Virus genome (UHGV): UHGV-1789045
DNA: 12,500 bases
Reading direction: 5' to 3' (one strand)
Origin: a virus
The translations under genes and the position numbers were made by a program. The notes beneath the pieces are model-generated. The model was given only the letters and a program-made list of their open reading frames with translations. It ran no database searches and was not told the DNA's origin. Shown here one piece after another: positions 1 through 5,165 of the stretch; positions within the stretch are counted from its first letter, which is position 1, and every line of letters starts with the position of its first letter.

Positions 1-208
1 TTGCTCGCTGATTCCACTCTGCTCTAACCTCTGAATAAAAAATCGCGCAGTCATTTCCAGGCGCTGCATATTTGCTACCAGATTGAGCGCGACACGTACC
101 GCATCGAACGAAAAAGAATCGACCGCCAGAGCCATATTCAGGGTGATCTGCTTCGCTGGCAACGTGCGCTGCGACGCCACAGAATGGACATGGTAGTAGG
201 TTGCTCAT
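1..208 (-). CDS. Lar-family restriction-alleviation-like protein (partial, runs off the left edge)
   Basis: Minus-strand ORF starting at ATG 208..206, which overlaps the stop of the upstream gene (205..207) in an ATGA arrangement. No stop codon before position 1. Translation reads [69 protein letters not shown]... The CPFCG ... CxxC ... WNxRA pattern is what I recall for Lar-type small zinc proteins of Rac-like prophages (memory, not searched). Confidence 0.5.
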   Translation of the reverse strand, partial: MSNLLPCPFCGVAAHVASEADHPEYGSGGRFFFVRCGTCRAQSGSKYAAPGNDCAIFYSEVRAEWNQRA

Positions 209-699
209 GAATGCACTCCCTCGTGAAGCTGTTCCGCACAATGCAGCAGGGCGTCAGTCGCCTCTTTCACCGTAACGCAGTCGCCATCGTCCATCCCGGA
301 CACCGACGCGTGCTTAACGAACGCCGCGCAAAGGTCATCAAACGCCTTAGCCCGGACTTCAGCCAGGAAAGCATCGGTGGCTGGTGTTTCAGTAACATCA
401 TCTTCCCATTCGCTAAACTCCTCACGACAAAAGTCATTAAATTCCTTCTCAGATTGCTTAAGCGAGGTATTTTCAGCAGCCATCTTCGCGCATTTAGCCT
501 CAAGGTTATCAATCGTGATTCCAGCAGAACTACACTCCCGCAACGCCGTTTCCAGTTTTGATTCAAGTTCACCGAACTTACGGACAAGATATTCAGCGTT
601 TGTTTCGTTAACCTTTAAATCTCGTGGGATGCATTTGCCTTTCAGAAAACCATCCATCTCAATTAGTGACATTTGTTTCATTTCTTCCCACTCCGCCAC
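205..699 (-). CDS. hypothetical acidic phage protein, 164 aa (possibly Ea22-like accessory protein)
   Basis: Long minus-strand ORF from the six-frame track, co-directional with neighbours, stop overlapping the start of the Lar-like gene. Highly acidic (E/D-rich) with helix-prone segments. Family assignment is a guess. Confidence 0.6.
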
Positions 700-838
700 A
701 TCGCATTCAGATATTTGTTTTGATTTACTGATGGAAAAGAATTTCTCTTAAGCAATTCCTCTCTCGATGGCATTGGCTTTACGCGTTGGCGAATAATCAT
801 TTCTGCCGGAAGAATGCCGGGATTGTATGCAAGTCCTC

Positions 839-1129
839 TCATGATTTACTCTCCACGAACTGGTCAACGGCCATGCTAAGTGACACACCTAAAGTCTCGA
901 TATGCTGCTGAATATCCTGTAGCGTCTGCGCCTGAGATAACAGGATTTCACGGTTGCATAATTCTTTAACCAGATGCTCAAACTTGCTGTAATAACCGAT
1001 ACGGCTTAGTGTTTCTTTCCCTGCATTCTCGCCTTCTTTGATAATTCCTCTTTCGCTAAGAATCAGATCGTGTTTGGTTCCGGTAATAACGTATTTGCCT
1101 AGGTCGATGTTTAGCTTCATTGTTTTCAT
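839..1129 (-). CDS. hypothetical protein, 96 aa
   Basis: Minus-strand ORF packed tightly in the leftward operon (10-bp gap to the upstream gene). No recognisable motif. Confidence 0.55.
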
Positions 1130-1139
1130 TGTTAATTAC

Positions 1140-1433
1140 TCAGTCATTACTGATAGCGCCATAGCGTGAGCGGTAATTACGCAGGCGCTGGTCAATTTCA
1201 GGGAAGTGGGTATATGTGGCTTTGCGGAATGGTCGGATTGATGTCTGGTAAATTCGCTCGCGTTCTTCTTTCTCTGCAAGCCATATACAGTGGCGAAATT
1301 CCTTTTCCTCTTTCGTTTCCTGCGGTAGCGACATTATCAGGTCGTAGTTTTTTCTGAATTTATCCAGCACCTCCGATACGGAATTGCCGGAACAGCGGCG
1401 CGCGTCATCCGCACCATACAGAGGCGCTGGCAT
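1140..1433 (-). CDS. hypothetical protein, 97 aa
   Basis: Minus-strand ORF, 13-bp gap to the HNH gene upstream. Basic C-terminal half, no recognisable motif. Confidence 0.55.
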   Translation of the reverse strand: MPAPLYGADDARRCSGNSVSEVLDKFRKNYDLIMSLPQETKEEKEFRHCIWLAEKEERERIYQTSIRPFRKATYTHFPEIDQRLRNYRSRYGAISND

Positions 1434-1446
1434 GATTTTCTCCTGA

Positions 1447-1926
1447 TTAAATTGCGTGAATAGCGTGACGAGGGAAGGGGAGAGTTACTGGTTCCTCGTC
1501 TGGGTAGATAGGTTTGTTATGTTTGTGCCACTCGACATGACATGACTTGCAGAGCCACATCACATCGGTTGGTTTGCTGTAGTCGCAGTGGTGCGCCTGT
1601 GGTTTACATTCTGATCCGCAGCACTCACATTGTGGTGGTCGGATTAGCTTACCGTCGCGCAAAAAATTACCCACAATGATGTGGGCTTTTCTTTTCCATG
1701 GGTTGCTCTGAATGAACCGCTTTTTGGCTGCGTTACACCGTTCTCTTCCGCGTTCCGATGATTGATATTCTCTCCTTGCTGATACTCGATGTGGCAATCC
1801 AGCGCGTTCTTTGTCGTATTCAGCCAGGCAAGCCCGGCAAGCGGCAGTTAATCCATCTCTGGATGCTCTTCTGATTTGAAAGTCCCTTTCTTCCTTCTGT
1901 TGATGGCATCTTGAGCAGATTTTCAT
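1447..1926 (-). CDS. HNH-family endonuclease with N-terminal Cys-rich zinc-binding region
   Basis: 159-aa ORF. N-terminal CSRCHQQK...CRAC pairs, then CECCGSECKPQAHHCDYSKPTDVMWLCKSCHVEWH, which fits the HNH nuclease signature (His-His ... Asn/Trp ... Cys-x2-Cys-His ... His). Confidence 0.65.
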   Translation of the reverse strand: MKICSRCHQQKEERDFQIRRASRDGLTAACRACLAEYDKERAGLPHRVSARREYQSSERGRERCNAAKKRFIQSNPWKRKAHIIVGNFLRDGKLIRPPQCECCGSECKPQAHHCDYSKPTDVMWLCKSCHVEWHKHNKPIYPDEEPVTLPFPRHAIHAI

Positions 1927-1935
1927 ATTCAGCTC

Positions 1936-2409
1936 CTAGAACGGAATATCCGAATCGTCAAAATCCATAGGTGGTTCGCTGTGATTCCCCTGCTGCTGAG
2001 ATTGCTGTCTTTGTTGCTGACCGTTATTTCGCTGAGGTGAAGACTGTTCATTGCCTCCTTGCTTGCCACCAAGCATTTGCATGGTTCCACCAACGCCCAC
2101 GATGACTTCGGTAGTGAACCTATCCTGTCCGCTTTGATCCTGCCATTTTCTTGTCCGTAATTTGCCTTCAAGATAAACCTCAGAGCCTTTTCGCAGATAT
2201 TCGCTGGCAATTTCTGCCAGTTTCCCGCTCATTACCACACGGTGCCACTCCGTCTGCTCCTTTTGCTCTCCAGTTTGCTTATCACGCCATTGTTCTGACG
2301 TAGCAACTGTAAGGTTTGCAAATGCCGTTCCTGATGGTGAATATCTGATTTCTGGATCATGCCCAAGGCGACCAATAATGATCACCTTATTTACGCCTCT
2401 ACTTCCCAT
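1936..2409 (-). CDS. ssb: single-stranded DNA-binding protein (SSB)
   Basis: 157-aa ORF. N-terminus [23 protein letters not shown]... and [52 protein letters not shown] closely track E. coli SSB. Gly/Gln-rich linker and acidic tail ending [12 protein letters not shown]. Confidence 0.95.
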
Positions 2410-3117
2410 TTATGCCGCCTGTTTTAGTTCGTTAACTCTGATGTTCATTACCTGAACGCATTTAGCCTGCGCCTCCTCGTTGCCAGCCATTAATTGCCAG
2501 TCACGCTGATAACGCTCGATGAGTTTTTTCTTGTCAGTTTCTGTTGACGCATAATCGCTGAAGTCTTTCAGGATTTGTTCGCAGTCAACCGATGGAGATT
2601 TCTGGTTGGTATTTTCTGGTGATGGTTTGTTATCTGATGCTGGGATTGCCCATCCCGGAAGCGATGGAGGGAGCCAGTAAAATCCTGTTCCATCTTTCAG
2701 TTTTGCCCTGTGCCATCCCTGCTTTTTATCGAGAGATGTTTGTGCGAAACCTTCCTCAAGGTTATACAGATACCGACCGATTCCCCATTGAACGGCAGCA
2801 CGCTTCATTGCACCGGAACGACCACCTTTGACGGCTTCTACCTGCGTGTTTTCAGCAGCATCCCATTTGGTTACCCATTCGGAATCAATCTTGATTGATA
2901 TGCCGCATTCAACTCCGCCGTTGTTGGGAATATCGCGGTATTCATTGCGCCATCCTGCTTTGCCGCAAACATCGTCCAGGCGTTTCATGATTGCCCGGTT
3001 CGTGACATAAGCCAGCACCATAGCCCACACTTTGCCATCGCGTGTTTTACCGCTTTGCTGTATTCGCCATTCGATATCTTCAGGGCTGAATGGCTCATCG
3101 AATTTGTTCAAATCCAT
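2410..3117 (-). CDS. single-strand annealing recombinase, Rad52-family core with Erf-like C-terminal tail
   Basis: 235-aa ORF immediately upstream of ssb. The segment GKVWAMVLAYVTNRAIMKRLDDVCGKAGWRNEY fits the Rad52/Sak-type SSAP motif. The C-terminal tail ...YASTETDKKKLIERYQRDWQLMAGNEEAQAKCVQVMNIRVNELKQAA resembles my recollection of the P22 Erf C-terminus (memory only). Confidence 0.7.
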   Translation of the reverse strand: MDLNKFDEPFSPEDIEWRIQQSGKTRDGKVWAMVLAYVTNRAIMKRLDDVCGKAGWRNEYRDIPNNGGVECGISIKIDSEWVTKWDAAENTQVEAVKGGRSGAMKRAAVQWGIGRYLYNLEEGFAQTSLDKKQGWHRAKLKDGTGFYWLPPSLPGWAIPASDNKPSPENTNQKSPSVDCEQILKDFSDYASTETDKKKLIERYQRDWQLMAGNEEAQAKCVQVMNIRVNELKQAA

Positions 3118-3125
3118 AATTCACC

Positions 3126-3296
3126 TCAGAATGGACACGGCCCAAGGAAATAACGCTGATTTAATACTTCGACTCGGGACAAATTAAGGCATACCCGCAT
3201 TCCTTCGCGGTCACCATTATGGCGATACCAGAGAGCTTTCTGCGTGTACATGCGTCTCTGTAACTTGCTCTCCTTCACTGTGGTTGCAAGTGACAT
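3126..3296 (-). CDS. small hypothetical protein, 56 aa
   Basis: ATG at 3296..3294 preceded by a strong RBS (AAGGAG, 6-nt spacer). Translation MSLATTVKESKLQRRMYTQKALWYRHNGDREGMRVCLNLSRVEVLNQRYFLGPCPF. Overlaps the next ORF (3220..3375) in another frame, so only one of the two may be real. Confidence 0.3.
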   Translation of the reverse strand: MSLATTVKESKLQRRMYTQKALWYRHNGDREGMRVCLNLSRVEVLNQRYFLGPCPF

Positions 3297-3869: not shown

Positions 3870-4121
3870 TCAGGCAGCTTTGTTGTAAATGTTGCAGGTA
3901 TCAAGTAAGTAATTAGATGGAGCGCCATAAATTATGAATTCATCGTTTGTCGGGTCCATCTCCATCTCTTGGCCTATTGCCATTCTTGCGTCAGTGTCAT
4001 CAGAGGCGAAGCATAAAACAGCCCACGCACCCATTGTTTTAAACAGAACTGCAATTGGCTGTGGTTTTACTGAATTTGCGTTAGCGCGAAAATCACAAAT
4101 CGCACTTTCATGAAACTCCAT
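3870..4121 (-). CDS. hypothetical protein, 83 aa, immediately downstream of N
   Basis: Minus-strand ORF with RBS GAGGTGAG upstream of ATG 4121; starts 8 nt after the N stop. Product MEFHESAICDFRANANSVKPQPIAVLFKTMGAWAVLCF...NIYNKAA. Occupies the slot lambda uses for ral/sieB. Confidence 0.6.
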   Translation of the reverse strand: MEFHESAICDFRANANSVKPQPIAVLFKTMGAWAVLCFASDDTDARMAIGQEMEMDPTNDEFIIYGAPSNYLLDTCNIYNKAA

Positions 4122-4796: not shown

Positions 4797-5165
4797 TTAG
4801 TCAGCGAAGGTTAAGACGAGAATTACCTTAATGATGTCTGCTACAACAGACACGGCCATAGATAAACCAAAGACGATCCAAGCCACAGTGATGTCTTCAC
4901 TACCATCGTATAGAGTTCCGTAATCACTGGTGTAAGGCGTAAATGTCGCGCCTTGATACAATAGGTATAAGCTTGATCCATAGAGGATAAATGCAGATAT
5001 CCCTTGTATTGCTATGATCACCAGAATCATGAAACGAGCTGATCTATGCGCCCAAGCCTGGCTTATTTTTTCTGATAGAGATTTCGCAATAAAAGCATGC
5101 GCTAAGCCGTAAATTGTCGAGATTGCCAACATCCCAAAAAAGCTTGCTATAGCGGTTCCAACCAT
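4797..5165 (-). CDS. small polytopic membrane protein (3 predicted TM helices), co-transcribed with cI; candidate superinfection-exclusion / abortive-infection protein
   Basis: 122-aa ORF starting 18 nt after the cI stop on the same strand. Three hydrophobic stretches (approx. residues 4-26, 46-70, 95-119). Sits where lambda has rexAB. Confidence 0.7.
   Translation of the reverse strand: MVGTAIASFFGMLAISTIYGLAHAFIAKSLSEKISQAWAHRSARFMILVIIAIQGISAFILYGSSLYLLYQGATFTPYTSDYGTLYDGSEDITVAWIVFGLSMAVSVVADIIKVILVLTFAD

Follow-up and report, generated by a model that had tools for sequence, protein, structure and literature searches.

A probable early-left operon segment of a lambdoid prophage with an ES18/Sf6-type recombination module and a putative mobile HNH cassette at the end of ssb

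The window analysed here is a 12,500-nt stretch of the virus genome UHGV-1789045, and positions 1-3117 encode eight tightly packed genes on the minus strand. In order of transcription these are genes for a single-strand annealing protein, a single-stranded DNA-binding protein (SSB), an HNH-like nuclease, Abc2, a DUF5405 protein, a DUF2737 protein, an acidic EaE-like protein and a Lar-family protein. The segment very probably comes from an Sf6/P22-like lambdoid prophage and makes up the distal part of its N-antiterminated early-left operon, where a recombination (Rec) module is followed by the start of the non-essential ea accessory region (1-1129). The operon assignment follows from the presence of cI repressor, N-like antiterminator, cIII and Kil genes upstream on the same strand, where the order is two small genes, Kil, cIII, an 83-amino acid (aa) gene, the N-like antiterminator, a 122-aa membrane protein and the cI repressor. 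Along the segment the first four intergenic gaps measure 0, 9, 13 and 10 nt, and the remaining three junctions are ATGA overlaps at 839-842, 678-681 and 205-208. The 9-nt spacing lies between the SSB and HNH-like genes, the 13-nt spacing between the HNH-like gene and the gene for the 97-aa protein, and the 10-nt spacing between that gene and the one for the 96-aa protein. A Shine-Dalgarno-like purine run precedes every start, although it is weak before the 96-aa gene. [quoted passage not shown] It counted five packed, co-directional genes; the dense packing stands, but the number is six, a 54-aa open reading frame (ORF) at 678-842 having been overlooked. Related alleles of the HNH-like, Abc2, DUF5405 and DUF2737 genes are under purifying selection (pN/pS 0.11-0.31; 0.12, 0.11, 0.11 and 0.31, respectively), which identifies all four as real genes. 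Rfam detected no RNA families across the entire window, and PADLOC gave no matches for any of the six cluster proteins.

Positions 1140-3117 are an ES18/Sf6-type recombination module. The first gene of the module (2410-3117, minus strand) encodes a 235-aa Rad52/Rad22-type single-strand annealing protein (SAP) that is equivalent to Sf6 gp28 and matches PF04098 with 91.9 bits and phrog_1097, 'Erf-like ssDNA annealing protein', with E = 3.5e-130. It is followed by the gene for a 157-aa phage SSB (1936-2409, minus strand; PF00436, 131 bits; TIGR00621, 182.5 bits) that terminates at the canonical acidic tip ...DDSDIPF. The genes for the HNH-like nuclease (159 aa; 1447-1926, minus strand) and Abc2 (97 aa; 1140-1433, minus strand) complete a contiguous block on one strand with gaps of 0-13 nt. 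In the published ES18-type Rec module, Abc2 and SSB-1 are combined with an HNH nuclease and an annealing protein, and the paper assigns 25 enterobacterial lambdoid phages to this class (PMC12315714). All four functions recur in the window as one uninterrupted block. Because 1140-3117 matches the published module, the HNH-like gene and abc2 lie inside the recombination module as two of its members, and not downstream of it as the sequence-only reading had it. Related loci were defined as those in a viral collection that encode a close Abc2 relative, which gave 86 loci (L009-L094); an Abc2 scan of genome contigs gave 6 loci. A second, unrelated HNH gene (155 aa; 4017-4484 in L019) is located between the annealing protein and SSB genes in seven loci, and a gene for a DnaQ-like 3'-5' exonuclease (182 aa; 4436-4984 in L022) is optional between those for SSB and Abc2.

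The 97-aa protein had been listed as one of three unknowns, and it is instead Abc2, which is among the best characterised phage anti-RecBCD proteins. The sequence matches PF11043 with 209.4 bits (cutoff 25) in a full-length alignment (positions 1-97 of 97), shares 92.8% identity with P22 Abc2, for which a complex with RecBCD has been solved, and aligns through residues 1-97 with the 'Anti-RecBCD protein 2' of PDB entries 8B1T/8B1U (E = 4.8e-57). P22 Abc2 binds RecC and blocks the RecBCD response to Chi (PMC9836394; PMC12315714; Murphy 2000, as cited in later work), after which the host enzyme no longer destroys phage DNA and is put to use in phage recombination. The close similarity to the P22 protein suggests that the window Abc2 would likewise bind RecC and alter RecBCD. 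The reprogrammed enzyme would then allow the phage annealing protein and SSB to recombine phage DNA.

Comparison of ssb alleles with and without the HNH-like gene locates the ends of an inserted cassette. In all 34 related loci in which ssb lacks this HNH gene beside it, the ssb ORF continues past ...DDDIPF into a 15-aa extension, APVTLPFPRHAIHAI. This 171-aa ORF is seen in L016, L019 and L020 near 4920-4990, and the HNH-less ssb end is GACGACGATATACCCTTTGCGCCAGTAACT. In the nine HNH-positive loci (9/9) and in the window, ssb stops after ...DDSDIPF and the HNH protein ends in ...PVTLPFPRHAIHAI, so that the tail of the HNH-less ssb is the end of the HNH protein in HNH-positive loci. The junctions relative to HNH-less L016, L019 and L020 define the inserted cassette as 1492-1938 (minus strand), bounded by the TAG at which ssb now stops and by the last codon specific to HNH. 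What used to be the 3' tail of ssb (PVTLPFPRHAIHAI and the stop codon) occupies 1447-1491 (minus strand); the same DNA closes the HNH-less ssb and here codes for the C-terminal end of the HNH protein. Nine of the 86 related loci carry the cassette, always at the same site after the ssb ...DIPF codon, and HNH-less alleles read continuously across this fixed site, leaving precise boundaries. The captured ssb tail is missing from most aligned HNH homologues, including every one named from another genus, and an HNH allele that is 47% identical carries the same captured tail.

The ssb sequence next to the insertion also distinguishes the two types of allele. The window and seven HNH-positive alleles were compared with seven HNH-less alleles of the same type. 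A 3-nt indel (a Ser codon) and three synonymous changes in the last 16 nt of ssb separate HNH-positive from HNH-less alleles and are present in every HNH-less allele compared, versus about 10 differences over the other 455 nt. The changes are thus clustered beside the insertion, as is characteristic of homing genes. Fixed-site presence and absence, precise junctions, the captured ssb tail and the clustered changes lead us to read the HNH-like gene as a putative free-standing mobile cassette of the homing-endonuclease type, with cleavage of the empty allele and copying into it as the predicted activities. The insertion would have taken place immediately behind the final codon of the SSB acidic tip, with capture of the old ssb tail, and the product of the gene may additionally nick or cut DNA for the recombination module.

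The HNH-like protein was assigned through its match to phrog_2340, 'endonuclease' (E = 2.6e-47, residues 1-143), and through its cysteine and histidine motifs. It is equivalent to Sf6 gp26 and has an N-terminal CxxC...CxxC zinc ribbon. Across 21 homologues that are 38-88% identical, residues C4, C7, C30, C33, C100, C103, H112 and H113 are invariant, as are D115, Y116, P119, W124, L125, C126, H130, W133 and H134. The C-terminal HNH motif, CxxC...HHxDY..P....WLCxxCHxxWH, is therefore invariant in this set; it has the pattern of a beta-beta-alpha-metal nuclease and fits a zinc-stabilised His-Me finger. Several searches weigh against the assignment. Pfam HNH models gave no match to the 1447-1926 protein even at E<=10, NCBIfam gave none, a PDB profile search returned a chance hit only, hhalign against the validated HNH protein HK97 gp74 gave a probability of 0.4%, and a precomputed HNH domain is present on 0 of 77 homologues. 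Membership in the HNH family is proposed from the sequence motif and the PHROG label. The sequence-only description of an HNH endonuclease with a zinc-finger N-region agrees with the motif, the CxxC ribbon and the PHROG label and has no support from the curated HNH models. A terminator-like hairpin with a T-run is located within the HNH coding sequence at 1669-1686 (minus strand), as a consensus match only.

The ES18-type paper reaches another view of this gene. There, HNH genes in tight packing, as in ES18, are regarded as probably true members of the module rather than selfish elements, and HNH is classed as the module nuclease (PMC12315714); in the window, by contrast, the gene behaves as an insertion in the ssb end. 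A dedicated, non-selfish nuclease would be the counterpart of lambda Exo or the DnaQ-like exonuclease and would make the ends or nicks used for annealing. The gene is closely packed, 9 nt from ssb and 13 nt from abc2, and has a pN/pS of 0.12, both of which are in keeping with such a role. So is the DnaQ-like exonuclease gene, which looks like a functional replacement in the same slot of other phages. However, in the 43 loci where this SSB type was found, the ssb-abc2 slot holds the DnaQ-like exonuclease in 17 and is empty in 18, and 12 of these 18 are otherwise plain SAP-SSB modules. One locus has the HNH and DnaQ-like genes together, and the unrelated HNH gene described above occupies a different intergenic slot of the same module. 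The precise boundaries within the ssb frame and the clustered changes adjoining them are the usual mark of a homing cassette. A dedicated module nuclease is thus possible but rather doubtful, and the mobile cassette is the preferred reading of the HNH-like gene.

The insertion restores a free ...DIPF end to SSB, and in the HNH-less form the tip is buried under the 15-aa extension. The free C-terminal tip of bacterial SSB is a protein-interaction site, and for this reason the two forms of the phage SSB may behave differently. The question raised is whether insertion of the HNH gene changes how the phage SSB contacts host proteins.

The gene missed by the sequence-only reading (678-842, minus strand) encodes a 54-aa DUF2737 protein that matches PF10930 with 107.7 bits (cutoff 25) over positions 1-52 of 53. 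The protein is very basic (pI 11) and 75% identical to P22 Orf56, and its other equivalents are Sf6 gp23, HK620 HkaI and HK97 gp38. The gene has an ATGA overlap at each end, and a 139-nt gap would remain without it. DUF2737 follows Abc2 in 86 of 86 related loci, either directly or past DUF5405. The phage collection has Abc2 in 225 records and DUF2737 at full length in 223, counts that include Stx phages with an Abc2 only 60% identical. The 86 loci are the closest Abc2 relatives, and their shared ancestry inflates the apparent linkage. The idea of an obligatory Abc2-DUF2737 pair is weakened by SEN22, which has DUF2737 without Abc2, and by Jersey-type virulent phages that carry a DUF2737 core. 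The literature search returned one trivial paper that mentions DUF2737. These distributions raise the question of why a 54-aa basic protein accompanies Abc2 in nearly every Abc2 phage.

The 96-aa protein (839-1129, minus strand) belongs to DUF5405, the P2 Orf83 family, and corresponds to Sf6 gp24 (PF17399, 25.4 bits, cutoff 21.6; phrog_154, E = 1.6e-32). It had been presented as an unknown; it is indeed uncharacterised, although the large family was already catalogued. A tblastn search found the orf83 genes of P2-like phages at 33-39% identity. The P2 Orf83 and phage 186 proteins share PF17399 and about 34-35% identity with the window protein and are likewise small early-operon proteins. Their genes are located among replication genes upstream of gene A in P2 and 186, whereas the window gene lies between abc2 and the DUF2737 gene. 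Elsewhere the neighbours of DUF5405 are replication genes (P2 and 186), an SbcC-like gene (a T4-like phage) and the dUTPase region (an N4-like phage). Only 17 of the 86 related loci have DUF5405, which makes it an optional cassette, and its place is always between abc2 and the DUF2737 gene. The AlphaFold2 model (pLDDT 89.7) consists of four strands followed by two helices. Fold searches found no solved structural relative, and the matches in BFVD were uncharacterised proteins from many phage groups, including Bacillus, Cellulophaga and Lactobacillus phages. DUF5405 was also considered as an equivalent of P22 Abc1 and rejected; the two have no similarity and abc1 is on the opposite side of abc2.

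Product labels in PHROGs and RefSeq would make DUF5405 a replication initiation protein, and we regard this as highly improbable. The label belongs to phrog_154, and in P2-like phages the next gene downstream is A, which encodes the replication nickase. However, the unrelated P2 orf81 bears this label too, and the phage 186 record describes the DUF5405 homologue as 'unknown function; not essential'. The window encodes its own O-like replication protein and a primase-helicase elsewhere, and the literature search found no paper that mentions DUF5405 and nothing functional on P2 orf83. The name, assigned in PHROGs and copied into RefSeq phage records, appears to be unfounded. The question that remains with DUF5405 is the role of a confidently folded protein found in P2-like, lambdoid, T4-like and N4-like phages.

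The next protein (205-681, minus strand) is an acidic, helical coiled-coil protein of 158 aa and a mosaic relative of P22 EaE (phrog_614, E = 5.1e-56), with which it shares 54% identity across 78 central residues. The sequence-only reading described an acidic protein of 164 aa. The acidic character holds (pI 4.6), but the length does not. Translation from GTG 699 would begin inside the 54-aa gene, and the presence of this DUF2737 gene places the start at ATG 681, which is in an ATGA overlap with it. Nearly all of the closest database homologues listed are also 158 aa long and begin MKQMSL. With more than 7,500 relatives in the databases, this family too is large and catalogued but uncharacterised. 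Its ends, residues 1-72 and 100-158, hardly vary, whereas the centre differs in sequence and length, giving aligned members of 137-224 aa. In some members the central cassette is almost absent, and in others it reaches about 90 residues of unrelated sequence, a pattern that suggests repeated exchange of cassettes between conserved flanks.

The closest studied analogue of the 158-aa protein is lambda Ea22, a pro-lysogenic, tetrameric coiled-coil protein (PMC10834534). Both genes are located between the recombination genes and xis. In Ea22 a long coiled coil connects a short N-terminal part with a separate C-terminal part, and the window protein may have a similar architecture. Its model, with a pLDDT of 44.8, contains helices only, long ones spanning 26-52 and 57-88, and was too poor for fold searches. 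The sequences have no significant similarity: BLASTP of the 158-aa protein against lambda Ea22 gave E = 0.14, and no significant similarity to Sf6 gp21 was detected. The 158-aa sequence matched no Pfam family at E<=0.01 and gave weak coiled-coil matches only at E<=10, with no match to PF13935. This family is recorded on 1 of 120 listed homologues, and NCBI names one homologue 'ead/Ea22-like'. No sequence match to any solved structure was found, including the C-terminal domain of Ea22.

The window edge cuts the last gene, and the first 69 codons of a Lar-family zinc-ribbon gene are present at 1-208 (minus strand). The match to PF14354 scores 36.4 bits against a cutoff of 28.6, and the four-cysteine zinc ribbon is present (LLPCPFCG ... 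VRCGTCRA). The earlier call of a Cys-rich, Lar-like protein was therefore correct, for an ORF that is incomplete at the window edge. E. coli SRY149 has a stand-alone protein of 77 aa, named 'Lar family restriction alleviation protein', to which the ORF is 96% identical, and the stop codon is probably about 24 nt past the edge. Rac Lar/RalR has restriction alleviation activity and is also the DNase toxin of a type I toxin-antitoxin pair (PMC4041452). It resembles the window protein in being a small four-cysteine zinc ribbon of PF14354 encoded near lambdoid prophage recombination genes. Rfam found no RalA-like RNA in the window. Family membership suggests that the Lar-like protein would relieve type I restriction. 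Two comparisons count against it: the score on TIGR03655 is 27.3 bits, below the cutoff of 39.6, and identity to Rac Lar/RalR, the sole tested Lar, is 23% over 43 aa. The annotation of HK106 would make the ORF the start of a 336-aa fusion, and this was rejected, as the frame annotated for gp32 differs from that of an intact but unannotated Lar ORF lying beneath it. In HK106 (NC_019768; L003) this Lar-family ORF lies at 2975-3241 on the minus strand and has 77 aa counted from its ATG. The 336-aa gp32, which is annotated from a GTG start, probably begins further downstream, and 'EaD' of HF4s looks alike.

The sequence-only reading proposed that this segment is a variable region with counter-defence genes and that its three unknown proteins are candidates for further counter-defence or host-takeover functions. 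The first part is borne out by the presence of Abc2 and a Lar-family gene and by differences in gene content among the 86 related loci. For the second part, no link of the unknown proteins to restriction or defence was found, which leaves genomic position as the ground for their candidacy. The structural comparison of the three succeeded in part. The 97-aa protein matched 8B1T, DUF5405 yielded a good model (pLDDT 89.7) with no solved relative, and the model of the 158-aa protein was poor. DUF5405, DUF2737 and the EaE-like protein are real, conserved and small, and they look like binding proteins rather than enzymes. Our best guess is that they bind and modulate host or phage proteins early in infection.

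It is unlikely that at least one of these three is a counter-defence or host-takeover factor that disables immunity or shields the phage from systems sensing the Abc2 attack on RecBCD. The counter-defence genes Abc2 and Lar flank all three within the early operon, and the optional occurrence of DUF5405 (17/86) and the hypervariable centre of the EaE-like protein are patterns typical of arms-race genes. Against this, none of the three has a homology or fold link to known anti-defence proteins, and lambda Ea22 affects the lysis-lysogeny choice and has no known defence role. The P22 neighbour gene abc1 gave counter-defence and cell-death-trigger phenotypes in an accessory-gene screen (PMC12373910), but the supplementary text of that screen, as far as it was available, did not contain the five protein sequences. 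The association of DUF2737 with Abc2 (86/86 loci; 223 vs 225 records) would favour such a factor, yet DUF2737 occurs without Abc2 in SEN22 and Jersey-type virulent phages. DUF5405 is likewise found among the replication genes of P2-like, T4-like and N4-like phages without Abc2. The narrower proposal has two forms: DUF2737 as a partner of Abc2, acting in RecBCD takeover or hiding it from systems that watch RecBCD, or DUF5405 as the founder of a family with a new structure that acts early, in counter-defence or host takeover, across many phage groups. We consider it improbable that either form holds.

The exact combination of genes is a new mosaic of known parts, since none of the 86 related loci has all eight window genes together. 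An EaE-like gene follows DUF2737 in 44 of the 86 loci, and a Lar-like gene is present in at least 4, many loci ending early. At the DNA level window positions 694-2000 are 97.8% identical to Sf6 genes 23-27, and no phage record covers at least 80% of the 2 kb. Sf6 genes 20-28 (Casjens et al. 2004; NC_005344) have the same order of annealing protein, SSB, gp26, gp25 (Abc2), gp24 and gp23, and a Lar-like gene is found further down the operon, as in the window. The two differ after DUF2737, where Sf6 has gp22 and an ead/Ea22-like protein of 226 aa. The latter has no sequence relationship to the 158-aa protein of the window, which is of the HK620 p08 / HK106 gp33 type. The P22 genes abc2-orf56-eaE have the same order and operon position as their window counterparts. 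In place of the Rad52-type protein, SSB and HNH of the window, P22 encodes Erf, Arf and Abc1, and it is without DUF5405. The cluster is thus already known, its genes having been annotated in Sf6, P22, HK620 and HK106 since 2000-2004. It will not surprise specialists, and its value is as a pointer to questions on DUF2737 and Abc2, on DUF5405, and on the HNH cassette and SSB.

Two genes further upstream on the minus strand were also noted. An 83-aa protein with a full-length match to phrog_2471 is encoded at 3870-4121, just downstream of the N-like antiterminator. A predicted membrane protein of 122 aa (phrog_6534) is encoded at 4797-5165, between the cI repressor and the N-like gene, which is the position of the exclusion genes rexB and sieB in lambda and P22.

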